Shown piece after piece: positions 6,908 to 44,785 of a stretch of 64,000 nt of DNA. The notes under the pieces were generated by a model, which saw nothing but the letters and a program-made list of their open reading frames with translations, was not told where the DNA came from and did not search any database. Where the stretch lies: assembly GCA_002428995.1 (NCBI GenBank), contig DIYJ01000015.1:125144-189143 (forward strand), in the 5' to 3' direction. Numbering within the stretch: position 1 is the first letter of the stretch; each line of letters opens with the position of its first letter. Source of the stretch: Flavobacteriales bacterium UBA6057. GTDB taxonomy: Bacteria; Bacteroidota; Bacteroidia; Flavobacteriales_G; Salibacteraceae. The position numbers were made by a program, and so were the translations under genes.

Positions 6908-7456
6908 CTATGCTGTCACTGTTTCCAAAGGTTCCGCCAGTGGGAAATCGATTGGAATGTTTGTCGTTCCATGGATGAAGTTGCTTACCATCTTGTCTCC
7001 GATTACCATGATAATGTCAACGAGGTTTTCCTGGTTGTAACCTGCTGCCAGGAGTCCATCGATGGCGCCTTGAGAAGGATGGCTTCTGTTTACGACCGAA
7101 TCTTTTACGAATCGAGCCAAAGCGTCAAACTTTGCATCGAAGCTTGCCTGACCGCTTCTGATCTCAAGGATCTGCTCGTCTGTGAATCCGTTCATTTTAC
7201 CGAGAGCCGTGTGAGCTGAGAGGCAGTAGAAGCACTGGTTTACTTCACTCACTACGAGGTTGATGATCTCACGCTCTTTAGCGCGCAATGAGCTTTTTCG
7301 GTTTTGAAGTGCGAGGTAATCTCCGAGCGCTGTGCCGCTGTGTGCGTAGTAAGCATAGAGGTTTGGAACAAAGCCCAGGTTCTTGTTCAGGTTGTCGAAG
7401 ATACCTTGGTTTCCTTCGCTTACTTCTTCTCTTGTGGGGACTGTTAAAGTTGCCAT
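6908..7456 (-). CDS. Carboxymuconolactone decarboxylase / AhpD-family peroxidase-like protein
   Basis: 182 aa. AhpD core CxxC-H motif (NQCFYCLSAHTALGK). Confidence 0.75.
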   Translation of the reverse strand: MATLTVPTREEVSEGNQGIFDNLNKNLGFVPNLYAYYAHSGTALGDYLALQNRKSSLRAKEREIINLVVSEVNQCFYCLSAHTALGKMNGFTDEQILEIRSGQASFDAKFDALARFVKDSVVNRSHPSQGAIDGLLAAGYNQENLVDIIMVIGDKMVSNFIHGTTNIPIDFPLAEPLETVTA

Positions 7457-7558
7457 AACTATTGTGTTTAAATGTGTTTTTGTTTTGATGGTACAAGGTT
7501 ATGGCGGTTTCAGAGGGGAGTCTATGACCAGGTTTCCCGGCTCATTGTCCATTTTTCC

Positions 7559-8404
7559 CTAAGCAGCATTTTTTGCCGTTTCACGGAACTCCTGCGGGCT
7601 TTTTCCTTCCAGTTTCTTGAAGAGTTTGTGGAAGGAGCTTACTTCTACGTAGCCTAGTTCTACCGCAATTTCTTTGATGGACAGATCAGTGTAGACGAGT
7701 AACCTGCGCGCTTCCAAAACAATGCGCTCGTGAACGACCTGAAGCGGAGACTTCTGATTGTAAAGCTTGAAGATGTTGGAGAGTGTTTTGGGAGATCGAT
7801 GCAGCCGGTCTGCATATTCATTCACGGTTTTAAGCTCCCGAAAGTGCATGTCGACCAGGAAGTTGAATTGACGAATCACCTCCACCTGGGAGTCGCTCAC
7901 TTCTTTATTGACCAGCTGTTCTTTCGCCAGGCGCGTACATATAATGATGAGCCTCTTGAGGAGCATTTGAAGCATTTCACCTTGAATCTTATCGGCTGTT
8001 TGAAATTCATCCTTGAACACCTCCAGCAGCAGGTTGAGTTTCCGTTGGTGTTCTTTGTCCAGGTGAATCACGGGAATGGTTTGCGTACCGAAGAAGATGA
8101 TCCCGTTGCATGATACTTCCTCATCGTGCGTGTGAATGCAGTAAAACTCCTTGTTGAAAGAAAAGGTGGTGATGTCTGGCTGATCTTCCAGCAAATGCAC
8201 CTTATGAAGAAAGGTGATGGTGGTGATGTGGTGAGGAGGAAGGGTGACCGGCATTTCATCCACCTTGAAATGATAAGGCTCATTGGAATGGTTCCAGAGA
8301 AAGTGGATGAGCTGGCTGTCTTCAAACGGTCCCTCGTTCCGTGTTAGCGGGTTCTGAAGGACAAAACGGCCCTTAAGCTTGGGTTCTGTGAAATCGTAGA
8401 ACAT
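7559..8404 (-). CDS. AraC-family transcriptional regulator
   Basis: C-terminal twin HTH (KTLSNIFKLYNQKSPLQ...TDLSIKEIAVELGYVEVSSFHKLFKKLEGKSPQEFRE). Confidence 0.85.
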   Translation of the reverse strand: MFYDFTEPKLKGRFVLQNPLTRNEGPFEDSQLIHFLWNHSNEPYHFKVDEMPVTLPPHHITTITFLHKVHLLEDQPDITTFSFNKEFYCIHTHDEEVSCNGIIFFGTQTIPVIHLDKEHQRKLNLLLEVFKDEFQTADKIQGEMLQMLLKRLIIICTRLAKEQLVNKEVSDSQVEVIRQFNFLVDMHFRELKTVNEYADRLHRSPKTLSNIFKLYNQKSPLQVVHERIVLEARRLLVYTDLSIKEIAVELGYVEVSSFHKLFKKLEGKSPQEFRETAKNAA

Positions 8405-8584
8405 GATGGTAAGTGATCGCTTGCTAATGTCGAAGTCTCTGGGAAAAACTTACCCGGTTGCTGAGAGTCTTGTTCACAGTCACACCTCGAAACAAGTTGC
8501 CAAGCGACTTTCCTCAGTGTGACAAAGTGCCTGAGTCTGCGCAGGTGCTTCAACTTTTCTGCACCTTCGCGGTTCGTTTGAGTC

Positions 8585-11500: not shown

Positions 11501-11977
11501 AAGATGTACGTGAAGGAATGCCAGCTGGAAACGGACCTCGAACTGCTGATTCCTGACAACTACATCAACAACATAACGGAGCGGATGAGCGTCTACCGAA
11601 AGTTGGCCGATGTGAATGATGGTCATGCTCTGCTGAGCTTCCAGGAGGGTCTTGAGGATCGGTTTGGCCCTATTCCGGCAACTGTGGAGCGATTACTTCA
11701 ATCCAAGCGTTTGCAATGGGCTGGGCAGGACATCGGGCTGGAAAAAGTCGTGTTCAAGCAAAAGAAGCTCATCGGCTACTTCATCGGAGATAAGAACTCG
11801 CGCTACTTTGAGTCTCCCAAGTTCACCAAGGTGCTACAGTATGTTCAGGCGAATGTCAATCGCGTGCAGATTCGTGAACGCAAAGAGCGACTGTCAATGG
11901 TGTTTACCAACGTGAACTCGCTCGATAAGGCCATTCAGTTGCTGGAAGAGGTGATGGTATTGCCGGAAACCGCCTGA
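8585..11977 (+). CDS. mfd: Transcription-repair coupling factor Mfd
   Basis: 1130 aa. UvrB-homology N-terminus. DEAD/DEAH helicase motifs (GDVGFGKTEIAIRAA, LLIIDEEQKFGV, helicase C QMRGRVGRS). TRCF C-terminal domain. Apparent TTG start, with an in-frame TGA at 8579-8581. Confidence 0.93.
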   Translation: MGIDDLKRKFEKSPQITEFDFGPDLALPVRHRLKGIAGSALSFIVSALFRKHDVHHLLLFNDREEAAYFYNDLQNLISPNRVFFLPHSGKKPYAFEEEDEHVSARKTESESGLMRAEVLNAINTRKRHFVMVSYAEALSERVVTKKSLAKNTLSVQVDDKLSLDFVNEMLFELEFERVDFVHKPGQFAIRGGIVDIWSFSNDRPFRVELFGDEVDSIRTFDPVSQLSVKNHQHINIIPDVQKQAMKEVRQTFMEFLPQNTVVWLKNFELVQEKIASSFEEAQEAFEGLSKEVEHVPAEDLYLTEQVFLDQLAGFTQVEFDRPSMMKPDVEVSFHQSPQPSFNKNFDLLIRDLTNHQNNQFRNILFASNPKQIERLHQIFDDIFKNKEMKEIPFDFEGVNTAIHEGFIDHDLKIVCYTDHQVFERYHRYKLKEGFADAERQITLNELTNLQPGDYVVHIDHGVGEYSGIQKIDVNGKMQEAIRLIYSGGDVLYVSIHSLHRISKYVGKEGTPPKINKLGSQAWQNLKNKTKKKVKEIAYDLIKLYAERKLKDGHAFEPDTYLQTELESSFIYEDTPDQQKATKDVKADMEKTYPMDRLVCGDVGFGKTEIAIRAAFKAATDGKQVAVLAPTTILTSQHYKTFSNRLSEFPVKVDYINRFRTAKQQKETLKAVAEGKVDILIGTHRLVSKDVKFNDLGLLIIDEEQKFGVGVKDKLKTMKVNVDTLTLTATPIPRTLQFSLMSARDLSIINTPPPNRYPVQTELHTFNEAVIKDAIYSELSRNGQVFFIHNRIQNIGEVCAMINKIVPQAKVQFAHGQMDGKQLEEIMMGFIDGEFDVLVSTSIVESGLDIPNANTIIINQAQNFGLSDLHQMRGRVGRSNRKAFCYLLCPPLSSLTTEARKRLQAIEQFSDLGSGFNISMRDLDIRGAGNLLGGEQSGFISDIGYETYQKILEEAMEELKETEFRDLFKEEQGKMYVKECQLETDLELLIPDNYINNITERMSVYRKLADVNDGHALLSFQEGLEDRFGPIPATVERLLQSKRLQWAGQDIGLEKVVFKQKKLIGYFIGDKNSRYFESPKFTKVLQYVQANVNRVQIRERKERLSMVFTNVNSLDKAIQLLEEVMVLPETA

Positions 11978-12824: not shown

Positions 12825-13309
12825 AGAACATTCTCATTGCTTCCCTAAGTCTGCTCACCTTGTTGAGCTGTGAGCGCGTGGTTGATGTTCAGGACCCTGT
12901 GCCGGAAGAGGTGGTCTATTGCTTTGCTGATGAGGTGCTTATCGGTGATTGGCGCACAGACTCAGTTTGGATCATCACGGAAGTTGATACGCTGGACTCG
13001 TTGATTGAAAACAGGCAGCCGGGTTTTTTCTACGATCTATCCGTCAATTGCGGAGATCAGAAAGAGCTTTTGCTGACTTACACTGGTTTTCACAACCTCA
13101 CAACCGTTGACGTTCGCTCTACGAACTATGAATCTTCTGACAGCACGCTATTTGCTTATGATCAGTTCGAAGATCAACAGGATACCTCCAAGGCAAGCTT
13201 TCGAATGCCATTCACCATCGTGAACGATACGCTGATGAACTGCACCCTGAAGCAGGACCTCGGCAACGGTCAGCTAAGCACCTACTTCCTCTTCTTTAAG
13301 TCGATCTGA
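12821..13309 (+). CDS. Lipoprotein, hypothetical
   Basis: MKNILIASLSLLTLLSC lipobox. The ORF-track start at 12794 is a TTG upstream of this ATG. Confidence 0.55.
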   Translation: MKNILIASLSLLTLLSCERVVDVQDPVPEEVVYCFADEVLIGDWRTDSVWIITEVDTLDSLIENRQPGFFYDLSVNCGDQKELLLTYTGFHNLTTVDVRSTNYESSDSTLFAYDQFEDQQDTSKASFRMPFTIVNDTLMNCTLKQDLGNGQLSTYFLFFKSI

Positions 13310-13323
13310 TTCTCTCTTCGATG

Positions 13324-13716
13324 CTAACGCACTCGCTCAGTAGGTCTGTAGCGATAGGCAAACCATTTTGGATGTACTTTAACCTGAGTCACCGGACGCA
13401 TGTCGTGTACGCGTACAGCCGAGTGCAATTCCTGAGCAGTCAGGTTTTCCTGGGCCCTGGGTATGATGATCCAGAAAATGGCATCAAAGTCACTGCCATT
13501 CACCGCGTTTTCGATCTTGGCATCCAAGTCTGTCTTATCAAGGGCAAAAAGAAGAGTGCATTTTGATTTTTCGTCTGTGGGTAGTTGTGTTTCAAATCCA
13601 CCAGATTTCAATTCTTCTTCGATCTCCTCAGGGGCACTGAGGACAATACCCGGTTCCTTGAGCCGGAGCCGGATCAATACCTTTTTTACTTCCATTTGAA
13701 CTACTGCTTTGCTCAC
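13324..13716 (-). CDS. Hypothetical cytoplasmic protein (130 aa)
   Basis: Intact ORF with no recognisable motifs. A Bacteroidota-like -7 element TATGTTTG lies 21 nt upstream of the ATG. Confidence 0.45.
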   Translation of the reverse strand: MSKAVVQMEVKKVLIRLRLKEPGIVLSAPEEIEEELKSGGFETQLPTDEKSKCTLLFALDKTDLDAKIENAVNGSDFDAIFWIIIPRAQENLTAQELHSAVRVHDMRPVTQVKVHPKWFAYRYRPTERVR

Positions 13717-14028
13717 GAATTTGGGGCAAAATCTTTAGACTTTTGGTCTAATAGCCTCAAAGACAGTAGTGTTAGTAGTTCAAAAAATGACGGTCAGAGA
13801 ACTGCTGTAATAGGTTGTAGCCGAGAGATTTAGAGGCATGCAAAGCGACTCACGTTAGTTTGTATTTTTTTACTCAAACTAACTGCTTTGCCAATGCTTA
13901 AAGCGCTACTGGTGGAACAGAAAAAAGTATGGTCTGAATCGACCATAACATGCAGCCTCATAAGGATGCATTTCGGTTTTGATAAGTTGTATCAGGGTTT
14001 CTTTCCGGAGAATCTGGCAAAGCGATGT

Positions 14029-14613
14029 TTACCAGTCAATCTCGAACGATCCACCATTGAGAATGGCCGTTTCAGCCGGATCACCTTCGTTGATAAGATC
14101 CATGGGTGGCAGATCTGCAGTTAGTTTTCCGTTCGCGATGGTAAAATTGAGGTTTTCTCCTTTTGGACTCAGGAAGTTCTTGGACTCTAACGGATGCCCG
14201 GTGTTTATAAAGAAGCTGGTGTAGAAGTTCACCGAATCTGTCCCCATTGCCGGGAAGCGAGAGCTGCTAAAAGGAGCTGAGCCGCTTTGAGTCGGTTTGT
14301 CCTTGAAGGTCATGACGATTGCCAGGGTGCTTTCTGTGTTCCCGTCATTTCCCGTTTGATCCAACTGAGCTGCCGAACTGAAATTGACCTGATAACGATA
14401 AGCATTGGCATCGGGAGCGACAGAGTTGGCCGACATATAGAACGAATCTCCTTCGATGACTACATAGGTGGATGGGAGATCTGTGGGTTCCTCCGTTGGT
14501 GTGGTGCCAGGATTCGTGGTGTCATCATTGGTGTCGTCATCGTCTTTGTTGCACGCTGAAAAGGTGGTGAGCGCTGCAATGGCCAGGATCAGGTATCGGT
14601 TCATATCTCTCAA
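14029..14613 (-). CDS. Lipoprotein, hypothetical (Asp/Thr-rich linker)
   Basis: Signal and lipobox (LILAIAALTTFSAC), followed by NKDDDDTNDDTTNPGTTPTEEPTD linker. Confidence 0.6.
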   Translation of the reverse strand: MRDMNRYLILAIAALTTFSACNKDDDDTNDDTTNPGTTPTEEPTDLPSTYVVIEGDSFYMSANSVAPDANAYRYQVNFSSAAQLDQTGNDGNTESTLAIVMTFKDKPTQSGSAPFSSSRFPAMGTDSVNFYTSFFINTGHPLESKNFLSPKGENLNFTIANGKLTADLPPMDLINEGDPAETAILNGGSFEIDW

Positions 14614-14698
14614 TTTAAAGCGAAGCTATTCGCTTCGCTTCTGGCGTTGAATAAGGCATTTGACGTATTCTTGCTTCCCTCATCTGGTGTGTCACAAA

Positions 14699-14722
14699 CA
14701 AAAAAGGGGGCCGAAGCCCCCT
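14699..14722 (-). terminator. Rho-independent terminator for the Cys-rich paralog A gene
   Basis: GGGGGCCGAAGCCCCC hairpin with a T-run on the minus strand. Confidence 0.65.
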
Positions 14723-14746
14723 TGAGAAATGATATGCGATGATGCA

Positions 14747-15151
14747 TTATAAGATGTACACCACGTTTGGCGCTACAGAGAAATCTGCTACGAAAGGCCC
14801 GCAAATGCAGTGCGTTCCTCCCGCAACTGCCGGGAATGGGCAAAATCCTCCGGGTGGGCTCACACCGGTGCTTGGTCCGGGACATGGAGCTGTACAGGTG
14901 TTGTTTGCGGGCACTACGCGAGCTACATCCCAAACCCAGGTGCCAGGACCGCAGGGAGGAATAATAGTAGCGACACCCGGCAAACAGCATACAGGGCCGG
15001 ATACACATGTAAGACCGCAGCCACCGGGAGAGGCATAGCCATAAACCCAGAAGGCACAGTTAGTTCCGTTCTTCACCGTAAGGGGAACGGCTTGGGCATA
15101 CATCGCAGCGGTAATGAACAATGCAGCGCAAAGTAGAAGTAGTTTTTTCAT
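14747..15151 (-). CDS. Small secreted Cys/Pro-rich protein, paralog A (134 aa)
   Basis: Signal peptide MKKLLLLCAALFITAAMYAQA. 13 Cys. Clear homology to the 17763..18158 product (…IPPCGP.TW.W…CT..CP…SP.G…P.VAGG.HC.CG…ADF.V.P). Confidence 0.7.
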   Translation of the reverse strand: MKKLLLLCAALFITAAMYAQAVPLTVKNGTNCAFWVYGYASPGGCGLTCVSGPVCCLPGVATIIPPCGPGTWVWDVARVVPANNTCTAPCPGPSTGVSPPGGFCPFPAVAGGTHCICGPFVADFSVAPNVVYIL

Positions 15152-15215
15152 AGTGTGTTAGATTTAGTTTCTACCAAACTATGAACATGCGAAAATATAT
15201 CCAAGAAAAAACTTG

Positions 15216-15228
15216 ATTATTTGCGTTT
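15216..15228. promoter_or_regulatory. Shared 13-mer ATTATTTGCGTTT upstream of paralog A; its reverse complement is also present upstream of paralog B
   Basis: Exact 13/13 match to rc(18216-18228). Both copies lie about 58-77 nt upstream of their start codons. Confidence 0.4.
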
Positions 15229-15282
15229 GTTCATCTATAGATAGTAAACGCTTCGGAGCAGAAGAGCGCCTTCACCACGAAA

Positions 15283-15318
15283 CAAAAAAGGGCGACTCTC
15301 CTGAAGAGTCGCCCTTTT
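15283..15318 (-). terminator. Rho-independent terminator downstream of ALDH7-like gene
   Basis: GGGCGACTCTCCTGAAGAGTCGCCC hairpin with T-run on the minus strand. Confidence 0.65.
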
Positions 15319-15343
15319 GATATCAAAGGATTGAAGGTCTGGT

Positions 15344-16891
15344 TTAGAAATCGAACTTGATTCCTTGTGCCAGTGGAAGCTCAGTGCTCCAGTTGATGGT
15401 GTTGGTTTGACGTCTCATGTACGCCTTCCAGGCATCAGAACCGCTTTCGCGGCCGCCACCAGTTTCCTTTTCTCCACCGAAAGCTCCACCAATCTCCGCA
15501 CCGCTCGTACCGATGTTCACGTTGGCAATTCCACAGTCGCTGCCTCGATGGCTCAGGAAGGTTTCTCCCTCACGCATGTTGGTACTCATCAATGCAGAAC
15601 TCAAGCCTTGCTTCACACCGTTTTGCATGTTCAGCGCTTCCTCAAACGTGTCGTACTTCATCAAGTACAGGATGGGAGCAAAAGTCTCTTCCTGAACGAT
15701 TTCCCATGAGTTGTCAGCTTCCGCGATGGCTGGCTTCACGTAGCAACCGCTTTCGTAACCACTGCCTTCCAATACTCCGCCTTCTACTACAATGTTTCCA
15801 CCCTTCGAGCGAATAGCGTCAATCGCTTCGTTGTACATTCTTACGGCATCCGTATCGATCAATGGTCCAACGTGATTGTTAGCGTCCAATGGATCTCCGA
15901 TGCGGAGTTGCTCGTAAGCACTCGCAAGCGTGTTCTTGACCTCATCGTAAATCGAAGAATGAATGATCAGTCTTCGGGTAGAAGTGCAGCGCTGGCCGCA
16001 GGTTCCCACCGCTCCGAAAACAATACCCGGAATGGCGAGCTTCAGGTCGGCATGCTCACTTATGATGATCGCGTTGTTTCCGCCCAATTCAAGAATGGTC
16101 TTGCCCAATCTTCGCCCTACAGCTTCGCCTACTTTTTTACCCATGCGGATGGATCCCGTAGCTGAAACCAGAGGTACACGCGTATCGTTGGTCATCAACT
16201 CACCTACTTTGTAATCACCAACCACGAGCCCTGAAACACCTTCAGGTACTTCGTTGCGCTCAAATACTTCAGCAATGATCTTCTGACAAGCCACAGCACA
16301 CAACGGCACTTTTTCAGAAGGCTTCCAGATGCAAACATCACCACACACCCATGCGAGTGCACTGTTCCATGCCCAAACGGCTACCGGAAAGTTGAATGCG
16401 GAGATGATCCCAACAATTCCCAGCGGGTGATACTGCTCATACATGCGGTGCATGGGGCGCTCGCTGTGCATGGTAAGGCCATGAAGCTGACGAGAAAGAC
16501 CCACGGCAAAATCGCAGATGTCAATCATTTCCTGTACTTCACCCAAGCCTTCTTGCAGACTCTTTCCCATCTCATAGCTCACTAGCTTTCCAAGGGCGTC
16601 TTTTTTCTCGCGAAGCGCCTCACCGAACTGGCGAACTACTTCACCTCTTCGCGGTGCCGGCCACATGCGCCATGCTTCAAAGGCTTCCTGGGCCTTCTTC
16701 ACTGTCGCTTCATATTCTTCTGCAGAGCTTCCTTTTACACTGCCAATCTTCTTTCCATCTACAGGAGAAAAGGATTCAAACACTTCTCCGTTTGAGGCCG
16801 ACCACTGTGATCCTGTGGAGGTGCCTTCGTTCATTGCTTCAATGCCCAGTTCTTTCAAAAAATCTTCCATCATTCGATTTTGGTGGTGCAA
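15344..16891 (-). CDS. Aldehyde dehydrogenase, ALDH7 (alpha-aminoadipic/piperideine-6-carboxylate semialdehyde dehydrogenase)-like
   Basis: 515 aa. ALDH catalytic Cys (FGAVGTCGQRCTS) and Glu (LELGGNNAIII). The N-terminal region resembles the ALDH7/antiquitin family. Confidence 0.85.
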   Translation of the reverse strand: MHHQNRMMEDFLKELGIEAMNEGTSTGSQWSASNGEVFESFSPVDGKKIGSVKGSSAEEYEATVKKAQEAFEAWRMWPAPRRGEVVRQFGEALREKKDALGKLVSYEMGKSLQEGLGEVQEMIDICDFAVGLSRQLHGLTMHSERPMHRMYEQYHPLGIVGIISAFNFPVAVWAWNSALAWVCGDVCIWKPSEKVPLCAVACQKIIAEVFERNEVPEGVSGLVVGDYKVGELMTNDTRVPLVSATGSIRMGKKVGEAVGRRLGKTILELGGNNAIIISEHADLKLAIPGIVFGAVGTCGQRCTSTRRLIIHSSIYDEVKNTLASAYEQLRIGDPLDANNHVGPLIDTDAVRMYNEAIDAIRSKGGNIVVEGGVLEGSGYESGCYVKPAIAEADNSWEIVQEETFAPILYLMKYDTFEEALNMQNGVKQGLSSALMSTNMREGETFLSHRGSDCGIANVNIGTSGAEIGGAFGGEKETGGGRESGSDAWKAYMRRQTNTINWSTELPLAQGIKFDF

Positions 16892-35379: not shown

Positions 35380-35452
<73 letters not shown>

Positions 35453-35458
35453 CTAGGA

Positions 35459-35488
35459 AAAAGCCTTGAAGAAATTCAGGGCTTTTTT
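35459..35488. terminator. Terminator-like hairpin copy 1, directly after the tRNA (AAGCCTTGAAGAAATTCAGGGCTT plus T6, with an A-run before it)
   Basis: Stem-loop with flanking A- and T-tracts. It could terminate in either direction. Confidence 0.6.
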
Positions 35489-35636
35489 ATGCCGGAAACT
35501 TTCAAAAGAAGAGCAGGACGAGATCAACTTCGCAATGCTTCGTTGATTGAGAAAGTTTATGCTGATTGCGCTCAAGCTTCAGCTAAGGAGCAGCGAGTGA
35601 AGCATGAACGAATCGAAGTAAGTCTTGCCCCGCGAC

Positions 35637-35669
35637 TAAAAAAAGCCCTGAGAAACCTCAGGGCTTTTT
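35637..35669. terminator. Terminator-like hairpin copy 2 (AAGCCCTGAGAAACCTCAGGGCTT); terminator for the RHS gene on the minus strand
   Basis: Near-duplicate of copy 1, about 180 nt away. A6 before and T4-5 after it. On the minus strand it follows the stop at 35759 by about 90 nt and has T7. Confidence 0.6.
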
Positions 35670-35758
35670 ATGCTCGGTATTGTAGAAAGGGTAAAGATCT
35701 GCCTGTACTAGAAGTGCGCTCGGGGGTGAATTATCGCCCCCGAGCGGTTGGCCATGGA

Positions 35759-38700
35759 TCAATAAGATCCATCTTCTTGCACAGGACCTGAAATGCCTTC
35801 TGGTCTGCCACCTGGGTCAGCCATAGGGGGATGCCAATCGTCATTTTCTGTTCCGCCTGCTTCGGTATGCGCTGATTCAGAACGGTTCGATATATCATTG
35901 AGCATGCGCTGCATCAGAGCCTCAACCGTGAAAGACGGTGTTTGCAAAGAGAGACCGGGCATCTCAAAGTCAACATCTATTGTCAAACTACGAGGCAATC
36001 CTCCAATATTACTTTGACCCATCCCGGAAAGGTTACCAACCGAATAGCTTCCGTTCAGTTCAGTACCGAAAATTCCGGGCCGCGTGAAATTTGGTCCCAA
36101 AGACGAAGCCCCTAATCCTTTCTTTAGCGGAGTCTTGTACTTGGTTTTTTGTGTAACAGGTTGTACCAGTGTGTGCTGTTGCCCCGGATAAAGTCCAAAT
36201 CCTTTAGGAGTTTTTATAGGTGTCGTGGGTGGTACGTAGCCCTTTGAATCTTGCTTGAACTGCTTCATCACCGCCTTATTCTCTCGGGACTCAGCCTTAT
36301 CTACAAATGACTTCCATGTATTTCCCTCAGTACCAAATTTGTAAGTACCCGAAAAGCTGTACGAGTCGATAGGCCTATCATCCATGCTTTCGTCTTCGAA
36401 TGTCTCTTTGGTTTCGGACTTAAAAGAGAGTTTTTGTTTCGTCTCTCCCGCCAAAAACACAAAGCTTGGATAGACTCTCATGGTTGCCCTTGTTTCCAAG
36501 GTTAATCCACCACCATAGGTTGTGTTAATCCCGGGCCCTTCTTTTGGTTTGCCATACTTCCATGAGAATTTAGTCTCAGCTCCAAAAGTCAAATTGGCTT
36601 GCTCTACTGAAAACCCTCTGCCAACCGTGAGAGTTAATCCTATGCCAGCACCAAGCCATGGCGGAGGATCAAAAGAATGAAAACTGACACCACTTAATCC
36701 TTCTGATTCAACATTGGCGACAGGATTATTATGCGCGAATTGATAAGGGGTAAGCTCCGGGAAATCCGGTGCAGCCGGATCAACCGCAAAAAACCGCGAC
36801 AACCTGGGGTCATGCATTCTGAATGAATAGTTGGCGGAGTTGCCGTCTCCCTTGAACTCATCATCCATTTCTTGCCCATTGATGCCGTACCTGTAATCCT
36901 CCACGGCACCCTTCCGACCCGGCATAGCCATGCCATAAGGATAATAATCCGTGTAGCGCATCACATCGGGCAAGTAGCCTACGGCAACATCTTCGGTAAA
37001 GCTGCCATAGATGTCGCCTGGACCGCTGATGGTGATGCTGCCCAGTGTAAACTTGCCGCCTGGGCTCCCTTGCCCCGCCCAAAAGAGCTTGGTTTTAGTA
37101 GAGGTGGCCGTAAAGGTGTAGCTATAGCTTCCGGTACTAAAGATATCCAGCAAGCCTAGGTTTCCACCTCCGGAGCAGCTCTGTGCGCGGGCTTTTACCA
37201 CTGGCACGGTTTGCTCCAGTATGTCAAAGCTTACCGTATAGGTCTCACCTGTTTCGGTAGCGATGGTGAGAAAGGCCAGGAAGTTGGTGCTGGAAGGATG
37301 TTCCACCGCCAAGTCAGAATTGCCATCGGCATTTACATCAGCAATGGTAGCGGTGGTGGTTCCTACTGGAGATAAAAACCAGGTGCCGGGAGCGTCACAG
37401 CTGCTGTTGGCAATCACAAAATCGCTGTCCAGATCATACTCGTCTGGCACCAGTATTTTACGGTCGGTGATCACCTCCTTTACGTTGCCGAGATGATCGC
37501 CCAACTCGTACATTTTCTCACCAATCATGCGATGGTAGACCACTGGTGCATCAGCTACTCCATATACGTCTCCCGGGCCTGTAATTTTCACATTGCCCAA
37601 GGTGAAGTTGCCCGTGCTGCCCCATCCTCTGAAGTAGACGCGGCTTTGTGTGGCATTTGCGGTGAAGGTGTAGCTATACACTCCTGGGGCTACTACGTTG
37701 AGAGAACCCAAAGAGCTACCTCCAATCCCACAACCGCGTGCCTGGCTGTATACCCATGGCACTGTCTTAGCTACCACTTCGAAGCTTACCGTGTAGGTTT
37801 CTGTTGGAATGGTGTTGAAGGTATGTGCCACTCTGAAGTTGGTGGCCGTTGCATTCATCACCGTTAAGTCCGTGTTGCCGTCCATATCCACATCGCTGAA
37901 TCCGTGGGTGGTGCCTGCGGTTTCGGTCATGTACCAGCTGCCAGGCGCCCCGCACAATGCATCTTCCAGGAAGTCATCAAAGCTGTAGGCATACGAGTCT
38001 TCCGTGATTTCTACGCTGCGCGTATCTAAACCATGGCGCTTGGAGCCATAAATAGTGGCTTCTGTGCGGTGTAGTTCGGGTTGACTCTCGGTCTTTTGAT
38101 AGATGGCCATTGGCACCCCATTGGCGTCCATGCCATACCATGTTTTGTTCCACTGCGCTTCGGGTAGAATATTGCCTCCCATATCGCGCGGCATTTCCAC
38201 CTTTAAGATGCGATTGCCCATCGGGCCGTACTCAAAATAAAGGTCAGGATCTGTGGACAATCCATCGCGCCAAACGCGCTTCAGTTTTCCGTTAGGATAC
38301 CATTCCAGGTAACCGATTCCTTCCTGAAGGTCGCTCTTTAATGCACCGTCACTGTGGTATTGGTAGTTGCCCGGCAATTGCCCATTTTGGATGTCATCAT
38401 AGGCAGTGCCTGCAATGGCGTCCTCCACATAATCCAAGCGGTTATTCGTTTCATAGGGCAACAGCGCATCGTCATAGGTGAACTGATCCATGGCATTGAT
38501 GGTAGCGCCAAAGGTGTAGGCACGCCTGTCAAGCGCGGTGATATTGCCATTCGGATCGTAGTCCACATGCACTTCGTAATCGCCTAACGTGTGGCTACCG
38601 CTGGCGGTCATGTTTTGCCGCGCAGCGTTTACGAACGAGTTCAACTCTGTGATGTCGCTGGCGCTGTGCACATGACTCTCTTTGAAGCGGTGCAACTGGT

Positions 38701-41700
38701 CGTAGCGATAAGCTGTCCCGGTCACGTCAATAGGTAACTCGTCCAGGTCCATCATGGCCGTGGTCACGCCTGCTATGTTGCCGTTGAAGAGCTCGTTCAA
38801 GTCGGTTTTGTAATCACCGGTGGTAGCTGCTAAAAACTGATTCAACGGATCGGTGTCGATGGACTGGTAATCGCCTTCGTAATAGTCCAGCGTAAAGGCC
38901 AGCGCATCCTGTGCCACGGTTGAACTGAGGTGTGAAAGCGAACCGGTGAGCTGGCGACCGTCTTTGCCCATGTCTTTGGTAGGGTCGAGCACTGCGCTGT
39001 TCAGGCCTTTGATCCAGCCTTGCAGGGTGTAGGCATAGTCAGCGCCCTGCACATCCATTTCACCGAGCTCTGTTCGAGCCAGCTTGCCATCGAGTCGGTA
39101 GTTGTACTCCGCATCGCGGTCCCAGATGAAACCGTCTTTCGAGGTGTGTACTTCCTTCAGTCGGTTGTCGGCATCGTAGGTGTAGCGATGGCTGTATTGA
39201 TCGAGCTTACCTTGTTGAAAGTGTGCGTAGTGCGGCAAACCGCTCAACAAGTCATACTCATAATTGCTCTGGAAGAACTGTCGGCCATCGGCCACCAAGT
39301 CTGCGTTTTCTTGCAAGTGTGAACGCACATTTCCGTGCACATCATAGGCATAGTGGTAGAGGTAATCCGGATCTTCCAGAACCCAGCTGGGCACCATGTG
39401 TGTGTAGCCTTCCACAATGGACACAGAGGATACACGATTGCGTATGTCACCCTGCGCTGCTTCACCGAATGCATCCAGTGCGGCCGTGCTGGTTGGATTG
39501 GAGTAATTGACCCGCATGACCTGGTTACGGTAGCGATCTTCCCCAACTGCCGACAATTGGTTGAACCAAGTGGCGAATTGGGAAGGGTCCTTGGCCTTGG
39601 CCTTGGTGAATGGAGTAGGTTGCACAAACTCACCCATTTCAACCGGTCTGCCCAAGTCATCAAATTGAGTGTAGGACCACGCTTGGGTTGCATAACCCGT
39701 ACCCATCGGGTCGCCTGTGATGACGTTATGCGTCAACTCGGCTTGTCGTGCATTTTGGCTCACAATCAATCGGCCCACCTGATCGTACCAAAGTTTGGAG
39801 GAACCACCATCGGGTGTCACCGTTTCAATAGGCTGATTCAGGGCATTGTAATAATGGTAGGTTACAAAACCGTGATTGTTGTAGTGCTCGGATCCGCCAT
39901 CACCATTGCGGTAATCCTGGAGCTCATCAATTTCTGCATCATCCAATGGTTGTACACCTTTTGGTGGAACTGTTTTTACAAGGTTGCCAGCGCGGTCATA
40001 GTACATGAGCGTGTAGTGGTAGCGGTTGGCTAAGTAGTTCATGTTGTAGGTTTCGTCCACACCACGGCATGTCTCGATGTAGTTCGCTATGAATTCCTCT
40101 TTGGCGGTTTCCAGGTAAATGCCATAAGCTGCATCGGCTTCCAGCTCAGCATTCGTGATGAGTGCATCGATGCAGTCATCTTCGATCTCAGGAATGTAGT
40201 TCTCGCACAGCGTGTTCCCGCCAAAAACGTCAAAACAGCGGTTAATGACCAAAACACTAATCTCGATGGGGTCACCACCCTCCGGATCTTCGACTAAAGC
40301 TGTAAGGTGAAAATGTACGGTGAGGGGTGCTGGGCCTGTTGTCAGGTCGGCCGGAGTCAAGTAGATTCCGGTGAATGAAATCACATGTTCGAACACTTCA
40401 TCGATGGGCCAACCTCCAAAACTTTCAGGGGTCAGCACAATGGAGCCTTTCGGGCAGAAGTCACAATCCGTAATTCCGGGAATATCCGTGCCCAACGGAA
40501 AGCTCAGTGCTCCCGTGATCGGGTTGACATAGGGTTCGTAGTAAAAAGGCACGACCTCTTCATCGCAGGTGTGGAACTCACTTTCGAAGTATTCAGGCAA
40601 CGGAGGATAGCCGCTACCATACGTTCCGGTGGTGGTCAAACCATCATCCACCAACCTGTTGAGCAGGACTTTGAAGTCCAGTGCCTCTTCTGAAAAGCCT
40701 TCTGTTATGGTAGCGCCCGCATCCAGCGAATCGCACATTTCCATGAAGGTCATCAGCGAAAAGTAGTCGAAGCCGGTACCGTGGGTTTCATTGACATACG
40801 AAACGAACACCACGGGGTCTTCCTCGATGCTTGCGGTAGGATAGGTGGTGAGGAAGCTCGTGATGGCCGCGTCAAGCTGGTCACAGTCGATGCAACCGTC
40901 ACCGTAGCAACCGTAGTCTGTTACGGTGGTGGTATCTGCAAGTTCGGCCATTTGGAGACCAGTCCATGTGATGCTTCCAGGTGCATACGTAGCCGCCAAA
41001 GGCACTGCAGCTATTTCGGCACAAATCGCACGATCGCGGCAAAAGTTCACAGGTATAAATCCGTACAAGGCTTCAAAGTCATCTTCATCTGAAGCGGCTA
41101 AGAGCTTGTTGCAGGCACAAGTGTCGAGCGCAGGAATGATGGTCACTTCACACACAGGCGAAGGCCGGTCGATGAGGTGGTGTGTACATTCCAGCACCAC
41201 AGGATCTACCAGGTGGTTTTTGATCACTTCCTCAAACGATGATAATTCAACCATGGTCGCCCCATCATCGCACTGACTTGGGAACGGGTAGTCGGCACCA
41301 CAGCCGCCCGTACATACCGTGATCAGATCAGTACGTACAGCATCGTACGTTGCCTGACCGGGTTCCCACGTTTCTCCGAAGGGAAGGAAAGGAACACAGC
41401 CTTCCAATTCAAACATCCAGCCATCGGCCATGGTTTCGCAGGCGCTCTGGCAATAGTCATTGATGTCCGCTTCCACATCCATTTCCAAATCATCCAAAAT
41501 GGTGGGGTCTGTCATCATCTGGATGAGCGGGTAGGGCGCCATTTGATCGTACATCATGAAGCGTTTCGCCCTGGTGGTATAATCCGCACAGCTCACCATA
41601 CATGGTGGTATGACGTTACCGATACACTTTACACAGTCGTTGTAGGTCATGGTACGGCCTTCCATTACCACACCCAGAATGATGTTTCTGCGGGCCAGGT

Positions 41701-44700
41701 AAAGATCTCTGAAGGCAATCCATTGCGCATCCAGATCGCAGGTGCTGGTACCAAAGGTGGAACCATCCGAAAGTGCGGAAGCCATTTCGTAGAGTGTGTT
41801 ACCTCCACTTACTCCGAGCATGTATTGGCAAACCTGTTCGTAATCGTTGGATCCAAACCCAGCATAGCCATCGTCATAGATGTAGTCTTCGTCATCCAAA
41901 ACAGTGCTGAGCGGTCCATTGATCAACGTGACCAATGGATCTTCGTTGGAAGCAATGAACGGATCAGGTGAGCCTGCAAAGCATGCGGGATAATCTCCTG
42001 GGTCAACAGGAGTGATATAGCCAGCAGCTGAAGCTTCGGCATAAGTTTCCGTCAGTTTAAAATCGGTGGCGTAGTCAAAAACTCCTGAGTATAGCTCGCA
42101 GAATCGATAGGTCTCGTATTCAGGGTGCGCGCCTATTAATTCTTCTGCCCACCAGTCTTTCCAGAGCAATGCAAACTGGCTGAGGGGTATGGTCGCGTGA
42201 TTTACACGCACCTCGTCTCCAAAAACGTTGGTAGTCATGGCTTCGGTGACTCCATCTATCTCGTAAAAGATGACATCACGCCAGCTGTAAAGCATAGGAT
42301 CGGCTGAATTGAATACGCTGAGCCCTGAACTTCCGCTGATATCACCGTATTGGCCTCCAGGGCTTACATCGGCCAGCAGTATCGGGCGCATTTGTGTGCA
42401 TAGGGGTTGGTTCTCGCAGTCTTCAAGGTATTCGGTGCGCAAGGTGTTGTATACTGCTTCATTTGTTTCGCCCGTCTCAAGCGAATATTCCTCCCAGGTG
42501 CCATACTCGTAGTAAAAGCTCATTTCACAGGGGCTGCCCTCATAGCAGTCGCTAAAGTCTATCTCCATTAAAGCATCTGCCAGGAAGTTGGAGTAGGGGA
42601 TCAGGCAGTTGGTGTCCGCCAGTTCCACGTATTGATCCCAGTAATACTCGATGGGTTCGTGCATCACGCGGAGTGTTTTCGTCACATAGTATTCTCCAAA
42701 CCGAGGAAACTTGAGGGTGAAGGTGCTGGGGTGATCATCCGAAAAACGAACCGTGTCACCACAAACTGAATCTAGGGGTAGCAACTGACCCACAGTATCA
42801 ATCCAGACTGATTCGATCATGTCAGTGCCATCGCTCAACTGGCACGCATCTGTGAACGCTCCTTCGGTGGGCGTTACCTTGAATTCAATCTCGTAAATAC
42901 AATCGAAGCAAAAGCCTGGAGGCAGGCAGTCGGTAAATTGCTCGGCTGCAAAATCGTAGTTAAACGTGTAGACCTGAGCGGGGTCAGTCACTGCAATCTT
43001 TTGCTCCACAAGCAAGATTCCTTGATCAAGCAATTCGGGGCTATCGCTGGTGAAATCGACAAGGTTGGTATGAATGGGAGTTTCGGGGCCATTGCCTTCA
43101 ATCGCTTCTAAACCAGCCGGAGCTGATCCTTCGAGGTAGCTGATGACGGTGCGTCCCATGTTGTCCAGGATGGTTACGCTCACCTGGCCGTGCACATCTT
43201 TGGTGATGACGCGTGTGTAATTCACATAGTCTGCGGCTTCCGAGCCGATGAAGCGGTCTACCTCATCTGGATCTTGTTGAGCTTCGATGATCACTTCAGT
43301 ATAATGTCCCGCAGGATCGAGCTGATGATCAGGACCAACACCGCCTGAACGTCTTACTCTTCCAGTGGGGTCGTTGGTATAGTGAACCTGTGCGAAATTG
43401 AATCCTTCTGATTCGGGTACAAAGGCCTCAACTCCTTCTTGATTGGGGTTTTGGTGGCTGTAGTACTTGGCGGAACCCATAGAGTGTTCTGAACTCATCG
43501 GTAATGCGGCCTTTGGGCCACAGTCACCGAGCATGGCTTCATCTGAATGGAAGACGTGCTTATCGTATTGAGTATCATGGTCCAACATGTTCAGGTTCTC
43601 GATATACCCGAGGTTGGTTTCGCCTACCGGACTACCCATCACACCGATGGCCGGTCGGCCGTAGAAATCGTAGAGGGCTGAACCCACAATGAGTTCATCC
43701 TGGCTGCTGAGTTGCGATACGCTCTGACGCGGCTTCATGGTGCCATCTACATAGGTAATGCTGGTGTTTCGCTTCCCTTCTTCCACAAAGGCCATGGAAG
43801 CGCTGTAGCTCATGTTGTTGTCTTCGTGTGGGGTGACGGTGATTTTGCACGTGCCACAGTAGTCGTTTACTACACCATTGTCCACATACCCCCAGGCTCC
43901 ATTGGTGTTCCAGAGTCCATCGATGTCATGGTCAATGAAATCGGGAATGCGACCCACACCGCGATAGCGAACCAGCAGGTATCCATCGCCATAGATCATA
44001 GGGATGCGGTATTCATTGCCGGTTACGCGAACACGAGAGGCGTTGTTCTCAAAGTCGTAATTCACGGCTGTTTCTGTCGCTACTACCGGGTCGCCTGCAA
44101 CTTCCTCGCCCGTGTAACCATTCACCCAGGTCCACTCCAGGTCGTATTGATCGGCTCCATCGAGCGATGGCCAGGTCACAATCCAATTGCTGGTGCCGAT
44201 CTCCTCGGCAATGGTCATCGCATCCGATGGAATCACGTTGTAGGCAAAAGCATCGAAGTATTCTGTTTGGATGGATGCATGCAGAAAAAGGTTTTCGCGG
44301 TCGACCGCCACCGGGGTGTAGGTCACTCCACCATCGCTGGATTTATGCAATTCAATATCCCTTAAATCCATGCTGAGGGCGCCATTGAAGGTGTAAACCT
44401 GCCGGTCCTGATAGGCCATATCTGGCGCATAATCCACAAAGAGTTCAATGCCGGAGGTCGTGTTCGATACCAGTATGCCGCCCTCTATTTCATCCCAATC
44501 GAGCGTAAACACGATTTTGTAGTGAAACTCAGGGTCGATGAGGTGCATGGTCTCATCAATACCAAAGGTGATTTCGTTGGTGATTTGGGTAAACCCAAAG
44601 TCAGACTCCCATCCTGGAAGGATGTCTGGATGCTTGCTGGAAGCTACACTGAGGTCCAGCGTAAGATCCAACCCGGTATTGCTTGCTTCTTGGGTTTCTG

Positions 44701-44785
44701 TGGTAGCGTAAGCAGCGAACTGGCAAACCAATAACGCTAGGATAAACGCGATTTTTTTCATCGGAGTTTTCATGATGTTCTGCAT
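35759..44785 (-). CDS. Giant secreted YD/RHS-repeat protein (3008 aa): RHS repeat-associated core followed by a 311-aa C-terminal domain of unknown function; polymorphic-toxin/TcC-like architecture
   Basis: Sec signal peptide (MKKIAFILALLVCQFAAYA). Many YD repeats (YDRAGNLVKTV, YDQVGRLIVSQN, YTYDADNRLKEVH...). RHS core YYPYGM...RMHDPRLSRFFAVDP...NNPVANVESEGL. C-terminal tail 35762-36694. Confidence 0.9.
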   Translation of the reverse strand: MQNIMKTPMKKIAFILALLVCQFAAYATTETQEASNTGLDLTLDLSVASSKHPDILPGWESDFGFTQITNEITFGIDETMHLIDPEFHYKIVFTLDWDEIEGGILVSNTTSGIELFVDYAPDMAYQDRQVYTFNGALSMDLRDIELHKSSDGGVTYTPVAVDRENLFLHASIQTEYFDAFAYNVIPSDAMTIAEEIGTSNWIVTWPSLDGADQYDLEWTWVNGYTGEEVAGDPVVATETAVNYDFENNASRVRVTGNEYRIPMIYGDGYLLVRYRGVGRIPDFIDHDIDGLWNTNGAWGYVDNGVVNDYCGTCKITVTPHEDNNMSYSASMAFVEEGKRNTSITYVDGTMKPRQSVSQLSSQDELIVGSALYDFYGRPAIGVMGSPVGETNLGYIENLNMLDHDTQYDKHVFHSDEAMLGDCGPKAALPMSSEHSMGSAKYYSHQNPNQEGVEAFVPESEGFNFAQVHYTNDPTGRVRRSGGVGPDHQLDPAGHYTEVIIEAQQDPDEVDRFIGSEAADYVNYTRVITKDVHGQVSVTILDNMGRTVISYLEGSAPAGLEAIEGNGPETPIHTNLVDFTSDSPELLDQGILLVEQKIAVTDPAQVYTFNYDFAAEQFTDCLPPGFCFDCIYEIEFKVTPTEGAFTDACQLSDGTDMIESVWIDTVGQLLPLDSVCGDTVRFSDDHPSTFTLKFPRFGEYYVTKTLRVMHEPIEYYWDQYVELADTNCLIPYSNFLADALMEIDFSDCYEGSPCEMSFYYEYGTWEEYSLETGETNEAVYNTLRTEYLEDCENQPLCTQMRPILLADVSPGGQYGDISGSSGLSVFNSADPMLYSWRDVIFYEIDGVTEAMTTNVFGDEVRVNHATIPLSQFALLWKDWWAEELIGAHPEYETYRFCELYSGVFDYATDFKLTETYAEASAAGYITPVDPGDYPACFAGSPDPFIASNEDPLVTLINGPLSTVLDDEDYIYDDGYAGFGSNDYEQVCQYMLGVSGGNTLYEMASALSDGSTFGTSTCDLDAQWIAFRDLYLARRNIILGVVMEGRTMTYNDCVKCIGNVIPPCMVSCADYTTRAKRFMMYDQMAPYPLIQMMTDPTILDDLEMDVEADINDYCQSACETMADGWMFELEGCVPFLPFGETWEPGQATYDAVRTDLITVCTGGCGADYPFPSQCDDGATMVELSSFEEVIKNHLVDPVVLECTHHLIDRPSPVCEVTIIPALDTCACNKLLAASDEDDFEALYGFIPVNFCRDRAICAEIAAVPLAATYAPGSITWTGLQMAELADTTTVTDYGCYGDGCIDCDQLDAAITSFLTTYPTASIEEDPVVFVSYVNETHGTGFDYFSLMTFMEMCDSLDAGATITEGFSEEALDFKVLLNRLVDDGLTTTGTYGSGYPPLPEYFESEFHTCDEEVVPFYYEPYVNPITGALSFPLGTDIPGITDCDFCPKGSIVLTPESFGGWPIDEVFEHVISFTGIYLTPADLTTGPAPLTVHFHLTALVEDPEGGDPIEISVLVINRCFDVFGGNTLCENYIPEIEDDCIDALITNAELEADAAYGIYLETAKEEFIANYIETCRGVDETYNMNYLANRYHYTLMYYDRAGNLVKTVPPKGVQPLDDAEIDELQDYRNGDGGSEHYNNHGFVTYHYYNALNQPIETVTPDGGSSKLWYDQVGRLIVSQNARQAELTHNVITGDPMGTGYATQAWSYTQFDDLGRPVEMGEFVQPTPFTKAKAKDPSQFATWFNQLSAVGEDRYRNQVMRVNYSNPTSTAALDAFGEAAQGDIRNRVSSVSIVEGYTHMVPSWVLEDPDYLYHYAYDVHGNVRSHLQENADLVADGRQFFQSNYEYDLLSGLPHYAHFQQGKLDQYSHRYTYDADNRLKEVHTSKDGFIWDRDAEYNYRLDGKLARTELGEMDVQGADYAYTLQGWIKGLNSAVLDPTKDMGKDGRQLTGSLSHLSSTVAQDALAFTLDYYEGDYQSIDTDPLNQFLAATTGDYKTDLNELFNGNIAGVTTAMMDLDELPIDVTGTAYRYDQLHRFKESHVHSASDITELNSFVNAARQNMTASGSHTLGDYEVHVDYDPNGNITALDRRAYTFGATINAMDQFTYDDALLPYETNNRLDYVEDAIAGTAYDDIQNGQLPGNYQYHSDGALKSDLQEGIGYLEWYPNGKLKRVWRDGLSTDPDLYFEYGPMGNRILKVEMPRDMGGNILPEAQWNKTWYGMDANGVPMAIYQKTESQPELHRTEATIYGSKRHGLDTRSVEITEDSYAYSFDDFLEDALCGAPGSWYMTETAGTTHGFSDVDMDGNTDLTVMNATATNFRVAHTFNTIPTETYTVSFEVVAKTVPWVYSQARGCGIGGSSLGSLNVVAPGVYSYTFTANATQSRVYFRGWGSTGNFTLGNVKITGPGDVYGVADAPVVYHRMIGEKMYELGDHLGNVKEVITDRKILVPDEYDLDSDFVIANSSCDAPGTWFLSPVGTTTATIADVNADGNSDLAVEHPSSTNFLAFLTIATETGETYTVSFDILEQTVPVVKARAQSCSGGGNLGLLDIFSTGSYSYTFTATSTKTKLFWAGQGSPGGKFTLGSITISGPGDIYGSFTEDVAVGYLPDVMRYTDYYPYGMAMPGRKGAVEDYRYGINGQEMDDEFKGDGNSANYSFRMHDPRLSRFFAVDPAAPDFPELTPYQFAHNNPVANVESEGLSGVSFHSFDPPPWLGAGIGLTLTVGRGFSVEQANLTFGAETKFSWKYGKPKEGPGINTTYGGGLTLETRATMRVYPSFVFLAGETKQKLSFKSETKETFEDESMDDRPIDSYSFSGTYKFGTEGNTWKSFVDKAESRENKAVMKQFKQDSKGYVPPTTPIKTPKGFGLYPGQQHTLVQPVTQKTKYKTPLKKGLGASSLGPNFTRPGIFGTELNGSYSVGNLSGMGQSNIGGLPRSLTIDVDFEMPGLSLQTPSFTVEALMQRMLNDISNRSESAHTEAGGTENDDWHPPMADPGGRPEGISGPVQEDGSY

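Follow-up and report, generated by a model that had tools for sequence, protein, structure and literature searches.

An RHS polymorphic-toxin gene of a Flavobacteriales bacterium with a hypervariable 311-residue tail and no adjacent immunity gene

The 64,000-nucleotide stretch of DNA analysed here (the window, the 64 kb of this genome that were visible to us) comes from Flavobacteriales bacterium UBA6057 (assembly GCA_002428995.1, contig DIYJ01000015.1, positions 125,144 to 189,143), and positions below are counted from its first letter. Its reverse strand carries a gene for an RHS protein of 3008 amino acids (aa) that opens with a Sec-type signal peptide, continues through a DUF6443 domain and YD repeats to an Rhs-associated core, and closes with a variable C-terminal tail. 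The tail begins with SGVSFHSF and ends with QEDGSY, and it very probably represents the variable cassette in which an RHS polymorphic toxin carries its cargo. A preliminary description of the window had placed a 311-residue tail after the RHS junction at 35762-36694, and the coordinates, the residue numbers and both sequence ends were recovered from the open reading frame (ORF) translation and from the end of the TIGR03696 match. The features at this end of the gene are as follows.

35759-44785, reverse strand: RHS/YD polymorphic-toxin gene, 3008 aa (ORF listing, family profiles)
36695-36946, reverse strand: Rhs-associated core, residues 2614-2697 (NCBIfam TIGR03696, Rhs_assc_core)
36779-36781, reverse strand: Asp2669 in ...FAVDP..., positional counterpart of the first catalytic Asp in the Rhs autoprotease (119 of 120 relatives have D)
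36695-36709, reverse strand: junction motif E2693-S-E-G-L2697, a family variant of DPxGL (alignment of 120 relatives)
35762-36694, reverse strand: variable tail, 311 aa, residues 2698-3008, presumed encapsulated cargo or effector (segment after the core)
35717-35746, no strand: GC-rich hairpin with 13-nucleotide (nt) arms and a 4-nt loop, starting 12 nt past the stop (inverted-repeat search; unique in the window)
35633-35676, no strand: terminator-like hairpin, an inverted repeat with 20-nt arms flanked by an A-run and a T-run (inverted-repeat search and sequence)
35380-35453, forward strand: tRNA-Met (CAT), convergent with the RHS gene (ARAGORN; Rfam RF00005, 68 bits)

The boundary of the tail is set by the core. 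TIGR03696 is matched over its full length (profile positions 1-76 of 76; 38.5 bits against a cutoff of 32.5), and the match ends at L2697 of NNPVANVESEGL; by homology, this segment would be the plug and autoprotease module of an RHS shell. With the last 502 core residues as a query, 453 proteins were returned at E<=1e-10; RHS proteins or C-terminal cassettes from Bacteroidota make up nearly all of this set, and we aligned its best 120 members for motif and conservation counts. In the window protein the junction reads NPVANVESEGL. Glu2693 stands at the position of the second catalytic Asp, where the 120 relatives have E in 93 cases and D in 26, and the string ELEGLE is found at the junction of 66 of them; the majority form is E-x-E-G-L-E, not DPxGL. 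Since the ExEGL type is the commonest junction in the core family, ESEGL is, on this alignment, the normal local form of the site, and the idea that it might be a degenerate, dead DPxGL was rejected. Cores of the ExEGL type also bear genuine toxins elsewhere, among them Tox-REase-5, WHH/Colicin-DNase and Ntox46. We also note a tendency in the Bacteroidota core family for both acidic residues of the motif to change jointly, as ExE or DxD.

In Pseudomonas protegens RhsA, a dyad of D1324 and D1346 cuts after W1350, and changing either Asp to Asn abolishes both cleavage and killing (PMC8765631). From its position alone, Asp2669 would be the equivalent of D1324; the distance to the second acidic residue is 24 residues in the window protein and 22 in RhsA (PMC8765631). 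Among the 45 core positions that are conserved in at least 90% of the 120 relatives, the window protein retains 41, Asp2669 included.

Orthologous loci show that the tail is the part of the protein that varies. Two metagenome-assembled genomes (MAGs), one of Fluviicola (L001) and one of Flavobacteriales (L002), carry the same pair of genes as the window, i.e., the RHS gene and the large gene upstream of it. Their RHS bodies are 53-55% identical to that of the window from residue 1 or 24 onwards, and the similarity ends at residues 2699-2708, which agrees with the earlier structural reading of the tail as the variable segment after the RHS core. A scan of metagenomes added L004, the closest at 59% identity, together with L005, L007, L010, L014, L022 and L026. 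The nine orthologous or related full-length loci thus have bodies 50-59% identical up to the junction, and nine tails that are mutually unrelated (best cross E-value 0.066 in a nine-sequence search). The preliminary description had asked whether the tail is hypervariable among homologous RHS proteins, and these comparisons answer that it is. The same holds in the wider core family, where 117 tails fall into 91 sequence clusters, 74 of them singletons, with tail lengths of about 200-303 aa. Unrelated, unrecognisable tails are normal in this toxin family, and the tail of the window protein is a new, unrelated example of a well-known class of element.

Several observations bear on how the tail came to be there. 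The GC content at third codon positions (GC3) is 0.55-0.65 across residues 2300-2690, falls to 0.28-0.35 at 2660-2750 and is 0.40-0.52 from there to the end; over the tail as a whole it is 0.41, compared to 0.58 for the rest of the gene, and L004 shows a similar fall, from 0.52 to 0.37. Identity to L001 and L002 is 70-75% at residues 2516-2595 and 32-36% in the last 22 residues of the core. The cores of L001 and L002 end in FVDPLGL; that of the window belongs to the ExEGL type, sharing 55-65% identity with the ends of ExEGL-type cassettes of other Flavobacteriia. Acquisition of the tail by recombination as a 3' cassette, with the 5' breakpoint within the last 30-70 residues of the conserved core, would account for the ExEGL-type core end, for the drop in GC3 and for the lack of similarity to orthologue tails. 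Replacement of 3' cassettes has been proposed as a mechanism for polymorphic toxins generally (Zhang et al. 2012, PMC3482391).

Searches with the tail itself found no family at E<=1 in Pfam or NCBIfam and no match among PDB sequences at E<=10. The earlier statement that it holds no recognisable toxin motif is borne out in this sense, yet it carries little information within the family, because orthologue tails and most family members lack a Pfam match too: none of eight orthologue tails scanned against Pfam had a match at threshold, and most of the 120 listed core-family members have no precomputed Pfam domain. Nothing resembling the tail was found by word search of 5.8 billion protein clusters, among genome, metagenome and viral contigs, among plasmids and phages (tblastn) or in 83 fetched loci; a six-frame translation of the rest of the window showed no similarity to it, and a full HMMER search of 1.84 billion representative proteins gave no true homologue. 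Four HMMER matches (P0001-P0004) were rejected as artefacts in which a PSFTVEAL motif or a stretch of about 45 residues of beta strand scores repeatedly against 3-14 repeats of the target. When P0001-P0003 were aligned directly, the matches proved to be to 9-14 repeats of immunoglobulin-like/IPT-type repetitive proteins, no single one of them significant; P0004, which has three internal repeats bearing a similar short motif, was rejected by the same reasoning without an alignment. A tblastn match to L022 (E 0.074, 23% identity) lies in the RHS body and was set aside as noise. The collections searched held no identical or near-identical sequence for either the tail or the RHS core, the best orthologue being 59% identical. 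The source, with about 49% GC, appears to be a Flavobacteriales lineage close to Fluviicola and Crocinitomicaceae. The lineage is thinly sampled, and the orphan status of the tail consequently says little about its function; with no homologues, no alignment of the tail could be made.

Where core-family tails do have a Pfam domain, it is, for example, Tox-REase-5, WHH/Colicin-DNase, GH-E, Tox-URI2, Ntox46, a muramidase, an M15 peptidase or a transglutaminase, and the recognised toxin domain occupies the last 70-175 residues of the tail, in members with ExEGL-type junctions as well. In P0006, P0008, P0035, P0094 and P0102, the tails are about 215-300 aa long and about 110-190 unassigned residues lie between the junction and the toxin; such a stretch could be an entry or linker module. 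Several tails of the full-length orthologues are extremely rich in Lys and Arg, with strand-like patterns and no enzyme family:

L002, 11534-12268: Lys/Arg-rich orthologue tail
L005, 11420-12157: Lys/Arg-rich orthologue tail
L022, last ~270 codons of the ORF at 3530-11602: Lys/Arg-rich orthologue tail

The tails of L005 and L022 appear by eye to have a short FQIG-type stretch in common. Full-length members of this RHS system may often carry non-enzymatic, cationic cargo.

The composition of the tail is distinctive. As the preliminary description had noted, it is rich in Gly, Ser, Thr and Lys (G 12.9, S 9.3, T 9.3, K 7.1%, with P at 7.7%), compared to G 8.3, S 5.9, T 8.3 and K 2.2% in the remainder of the protein, and its isoelectric point is 6.1 versus 4.2 for the remainder. 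The combined fraction of Gly, Ser, Thr and Pro, 0.39, is the highest in the comparison, the tails of 38 relatives ranging from 0.18 to 0.36. There is no Cys, there are four His, and no 19-residue segment has a mean hydropathy above 0.93, i.e., there is no hydrophobic stretch of helix length. The alternating hydrophobic patterns suggestive of beta structure that had been described could be located in four regions of the tail (residues ~11-45, 55-70, 110-115 and 231-240). Its residues 1-135 contain five or six amphipathic beta segments; the tail also has a middle part rich in Lys, Pro and Thr, one strand-helix element (~231-276) and an acidic end rich in Pro and Gly. Internal repeats in the beta-rich N-terminal part are not significant, as 45 of 500 and 144 of 500 shuffles match the observed scores, and there are no adhesin-type repeats. 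Taken together, the absence of Cys, the four His, the Gly/Ser/Thr/Pro-rich composition and the amphipathic beta segments give the tail a non-enzymatic look. The amphipathic patterns are present but not specific to pore-forming toxins, and searches of Pfam, PDB sequences and HMMER collections gave no sequence match to known families of such toxins.

Atypical as its codon usage is, the tail is genuine coding sequence. A codon model trained on 15 genes of the window ranks its frame first among six in every third of the tail, with 0.03-0.08 per codon against -0.2 or lower for the other frames, and no other long ORF overlaps it.

The region downstream of the stop codon (35759-35761) is where the tail departs from its relatives. 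The preliminary description had listed a GC hairpin, a terminator and a tRNA there, and all three were found (35717-35746, 35633-35676 and, for tRNA-Met, 35380-35453). In the second of these a stem followed by seven T on the reverse strand can be seen directly in the sequence; a simple consensus terminator scan did not flag it, though the hairpin seems to fit the rule of that scan. It could be a bidirectional terminator, ending the RHS transcript about 85-120 nt past the stop and also the convergent transcript of the tRNA. The gap between the RHS stop and tRNA-Met is 305 nt long, and any adjacent immunity gene would sit in it; no credible ORF was found before the tRNA. The earlier claim that no ORF longer than 15 aa follows on the same strand holds for ATG starts and fails for TTG starts, which open ORFs of 34 aa (35658-35762, across both hairpins) and 40 aa (35453-35575, past the terminator), neither of which is credible as a gene. 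With an ATG start and a minimum of 30 aa, the first ORF on that strand begins 343 nt downstream, antisense to the tRNA. Two candidates were considered and rejected: the 40-aa ORF at 35453-35575, which has no family match, and a 100-aa ORF on the forward strand at 35489-35791, which likewise has none and runs across both hairpins.

Among relatives, an adjacent gene is the rule. Of 41 cassettes whose downstream sequence extends for 600 nt or more, 32 have an ATG ORF of at least 70 aa that starts between -30 and +150 nt of the stop, mostly within 20 nt. With the minimum set at 60 aa and all start codons admitted, an adjacent ORF was present in 29 of 38. In Wandonia haliotis (L003), for instance, a 187-aa gene lies 7 nt after the cassette, in a typical array. 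Downstream of the stop there is no synteny with the orthologous loci, and seven related loci that were scanned all lack a tRNA. The missing adjacent immunity gene, which the preliminary description had pointed out and which sets this locus apart from about three quarters of its relatives, is a real departure from the family norm and, as orphan tails are common there, the sole unusual trait. Lack of an immunity gene has served as a rule of thumb for toxins aimed at eukaryotes (Nachmias et al., bioRxiv 10.1101/2021.10.19.465003; Zhang et al. 2012, PMC3482391); nothing specific at this locus points to a eukaryotic target.

Further features belong to the carrier of the tail:

36986-37978, reverse strand: two tandem inserted domains of ~140 aa each, ~residues 2270-2410 and 2460-2600 (translation and orthologue alignment)
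43562-43801, reverse strand: DUF6443 domain, residues 329-408, in the N-terminal part of the RHS protein (Pfam PF20041)
44798-50965, reverse strand: conserved partner gene, 2055 aa, ending 12 nt upstream of the RHS start

The RHS protein starts with a Sec-type signal peptide, MKKIAFILALLVCQFAAYA, followed by TTE (judged by eye). PF20041 scores 29.2 bits against a cutoff of 27.8 with the whole protein and 37.6 bits with the segment alone; literature searches on DUF6443 gave nothing relevant. YD repeats are recognised by TIGR01643 (YD_repeat_2x, 18.2 bits against a cutoff of 15.8), the Pfam RHS_repeat family remaining sub-threshold, and no PDB sequence matched the RHS protein at E<=1. The two tandem inserted domains lie between the last YD repeats and the core and are beta-rich by eye; no family in Pfam or NCBIfam could be assigned to them beyond weak sub-threshold hints to FG-GAP and choice-of-anchor C. 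They presumably decorate the exterior of the shell. L004 has a single copy of the ~140-aa domain. DxDxDG-like motifs were noticed in the inserted domains.

The partner protein has its own signal peptide, by eye, and is 49-50% identical to its counterparts in L001 and L002; L004 and L022 have a large ORF in the partner position. No Pfam or NCBIfam family matches the partner at threshold. Residues 55-117 contain a stretch resembling SpvB (PF03534, 12.1-12.8 bits against a cutoff of 22), a family with any match in only 4 of 27 members of the partner family (best E-value 0.014), and there is a weak YD repeat at the C-terminus. When the partner was scanned by segments no FG-GAP or propeller family was found, neither the partner nor a profile of 27 relatives found a TcB among PDB sequences, and no TcA-like gene occurs among the large ORFs of the window. 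An AlphaFold2 (AF2) model built from the family alignment has a mean predicted local distance difference test score (pLDDT) of 58, mostly 70-89 for residues 111-340, which are modelled as 12-14 long antiparallel strands. The model makes it more likely that the partner is an outer-membrane-anchored N-terminal beta-barrel with a passenger of about 1600 residues than that it is a TcB; the TcB assignment is not supported, given the sub-threshold SpvB score, the lack of a propeller and of a PDB match, and the barrel-like model of the N-terminus. Both proteins being Sec-dependent, the arrangement suggests that the RHS shell is displayed on the cell surface or released by a route that we did not find described. 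A hybrid regulator with TPR, histidine kinase, receiver and AraC helix-turn-helix domains is encoded at 51272-54970 (forward strand), divergently from the two-gene operon, and could be its dedicated regulator; in L004, a homologue with 34% identity is found next to the orthologous operon, in a different position (13209-16418, reverse strand).

How might such a tail act? We tentatively favour, as a reading that still falls short of probable, that it is the hypervariable cargo of a Sec-exported RHS toxin, encapsulated, released and acting non-enzymatically. By analogy with solved RHS and Tc shells, the tail, of about 33 kDa, would be held, largely unfolded, within the YD-repeat shell, cleaved by the acidic pair Asp2669/Glu2693 behind Leu2697 and freed upon delivery of the shell to a target. 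Its size is close to that of the Tc cocoon cargo, which is about 30 kDa (PMC8765631). Encapsulation together with self-cleavage is, on this analogy, the rather probable part. Once free, the tail would act from outside the target cell or on its envelope by means of amphipathic beta-hairpins (~11-115), a flexible Lys/Pro/Thr-rich middle and the strand-helix element (~231-276), and there would be no co-transcribed immunity gene because the producer would not be exposed to the tail. Non-enzymatic action that spares the producer is the weakest step and a doubtful one, suggested by the sequence features above and by the lack of a co-transcribed immunity gene. The effector reading in the preliminary description, a non-self-toxic protein that might target eukaryotes, form pores or adhere, fares accordingly in two parts: the non-enzymatic look is compatible with a pore-forming or otherwise non-self-toxic protein, and eukaryote targeting is less favoured, as the antibacterial tails of the family speak for use between bacteria. 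The more specific proposal, that this is the first case of an envelope-directed effector which acts non-enzymatically, combines beta-hairpin segments with a flexible middle, needs no immunity protein and is delivered by an undescribed Sec-dependent route of DUF6443-RHS protein and barrel partner in marine Flavobacteriales, is quite improbable.

A number of points weigh against the reading we favour. There is neither a homologue nor a fold nor an assay in favour of pore formation, adhesion or eukaryote targeting. The single-sequence AF2 model of the tail, which has no homologues and hence no alignment, has a pLDDT of 36.5 and is unusable, and Foldseek with this model gave no match below E 0.6. 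Where core-family tails have known domains, these are antibacterial ones (nucleases and peptidoglycan hydrolases) with immunity-like genes behind them, and because of this it is equally natural to suppose that the tail is antibacterial and its immunity gene sits elsewhere, as it could with 64 kb of the genome visible. Pore-forming antibacterial effectors, too, normally have immunity proteins. The absence of an adjacent gene is itself shared: about 76-78% of relatives have an adjacent ORF, and roughly a quarter do not. At the junction, the residue after Leu is E in 116 of the 120 relatives and Ser in the window protein, and this is one of four near-invariant core positions that are altered; a literature search for the ExEGL variant found no paper describing it. 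Finally, the codon score of the tail is about 2.3 standard deviations below that of host-gene segments of the same length (mean 0.22, standard deviation 0.07), and the cassette could be a recently acquired and possibly non-functional one.

The alternative that survives best, itself unlikely on balance, is that we are dealing with an ordinary antibacterial toxin whose family has so far not been sampled, its immunity gene being located elsewhere, for example in an orphan cassette array beyond the 64-kb window. The core family is mainly antibacterial, with nuclease, muramidase and M15 peptidase tails, 76-78% of relatives have an adjacent small ORF, and Wandonia haliotis has arrays of cassettes interspersed with small genes. 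With the lineage poorly sampled (no self-match and a best orthologue at 59%), orphan status is a poor guide to function, and, since known toxins fill the last 70-175 residues, a small novel domain could hide at tail residues 236-311. On the other hand, cassette recombination normally imports toxin and immunity gene together (Zhang et al. 2012, PMC3482391); here a terminator directly follows the stop codon, and nothing similar to the tail occurs elsewhere in the window; the composition is also an outlier in the family, and residues of catalytic type are scarce.

It is less probable again, and on the whole improbable, that the tail is a decaying or non-functional remnant, in which a swap or deletion lost the immunity gene, the toxin was inactivated and drifting cargo now fills the shell. 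The missing immunity gene, the changes at four near-invariant core positions (the residue after the scissile Leu included), a codon score at the bottom of the host range, the highest Gly/Ser/Thr/Pro content of the family, which is of a low-complexity type, and the lack of any homologue among the 1.84 billion representative proteins would all fit such an origin. However, a frame of 311 codons would remain open by chance with P<1e-6 (our own calculation, at 46% GC and ~3/64 stops per codon), the annotated frame scores best of six in every third of the tail, and the rest of the 3008-aa gene and the 2055-aa partner are intact.

Very improbable is the view that the tail stays uncleaved outside the shell, as in teneurins, whose homologous region forms a plug that is not cleaved and leaves the C-terminal domain outside (PMC8765631), and serves as a surface adhesin or structural extension: the Glu in place of the second catalytic Asp, the atypical residue after the scissile Leu, Sec export and the seemingly outer-membrane-anchored partner would suit it, but that Glu is the family majority and is found with nuclease tails that need release to act, of the conserved core positions 41 of 45 are retained, as is the first Asp, and the tail has no adhesin-type repeats, its database matches being spurious and amplified by repeats in the targets.

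RHS tails are a large reservoir of undescribed toxins, and one without relatives or an immunity gene is a reasonable, not a compelling, candidate in the search for effectors that target non-kin or act non-enzymatically. On present evidence, the tail described here is one more uncharacterised cassette, which alone changes little. Three observations may be of broader use: Glu, rather than Asp, is the usual second acidic junction residue in the Bacteroidota core family; toxin domains, where recognised, are restricted to the last 70-175 residues of the tail; and a conserved two-gene, Sec-dependent system with an apparent outer-membrane-barrel partner points to an unstudied delivery route for RHS proteins.

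To understand how the locus relates to known systems, we compared it with four of them. Like teneurins, the window protein is a large secreted YD protein that has additional domains at its N-terminus and, past the plug of the shell, a C-terminal one. However, the C-terminal region of teneurins is uncleaved and forms a conserved ABD/Tox-GHH unit (PMC8765631), whereas here the tail is hypervariable between orthologues and both acidic positions (D2669, E2693) remain occupied. The locus also resembles the BC component of Tc toxins (TcB-TcC) in having two adjacent large genes, the second with a cargo of about 30 kDa after its RHS core, in lacking an immunity gene, and in a partner with a sub-threshold SpvB-like N-terminal motif and a C-terminal YD repeat; the hypervariable C-terminal region of Tc targets eukaryotes. 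It differs in that the SpvB score of 12.8 bits stays below the cutoff of 22, a beta-propeller could not be detected, the window contains no TcA, the N-terminus of the partner models as an outer-membrane barrel and the partner profile finds no TcB in PDB sequences; moreover, in L004 the tail (with its faint hint of GIY-YIG) and the 150-aa ORF that starts 4 nt after the stop resemble an interbacterial toxin-immunity pair.

The Rhs effectors of type VI secretion systems (T6SS), such as P. protegens RhsA (PMC8765631), share with the window protein a YD shell, a C-terminal core with two acidic residues 22-24 apart and a variable toxin after a (D/E)xxG-hydrophobic motif; in RhsA, release of the toxin requires cleavage (PMC8765631). 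Instead of the PAAR, prePAAR or VgrG-binding modules of those effectors, the window protein has a Sec signal and DUF6443; it is three times larger, has Glu for the second Asp and lacks an immunity gene. With the ExEGL/DxDGL cassettes of other Bacteroidota (those of Wandonia haliotis and the RHS core proteins of Flavobacterium, Tenacibaculum and Crocinitomicaceae), the window protein shares a core end that is 55-65% identical, the junction class, a similar tail length (311 aa versus about 200-303) and the extreme diversity of tails. Those cassettes mostly have a small ORF within about 20 nt and a near-invariant Glu after the junction Leu, whereas the window cassette is followed by a terminator and a tRNA and has Ser at that position, and its tail is richer in Gly, Ser, Thr and Pro than that of any of the 38 relatives compared.

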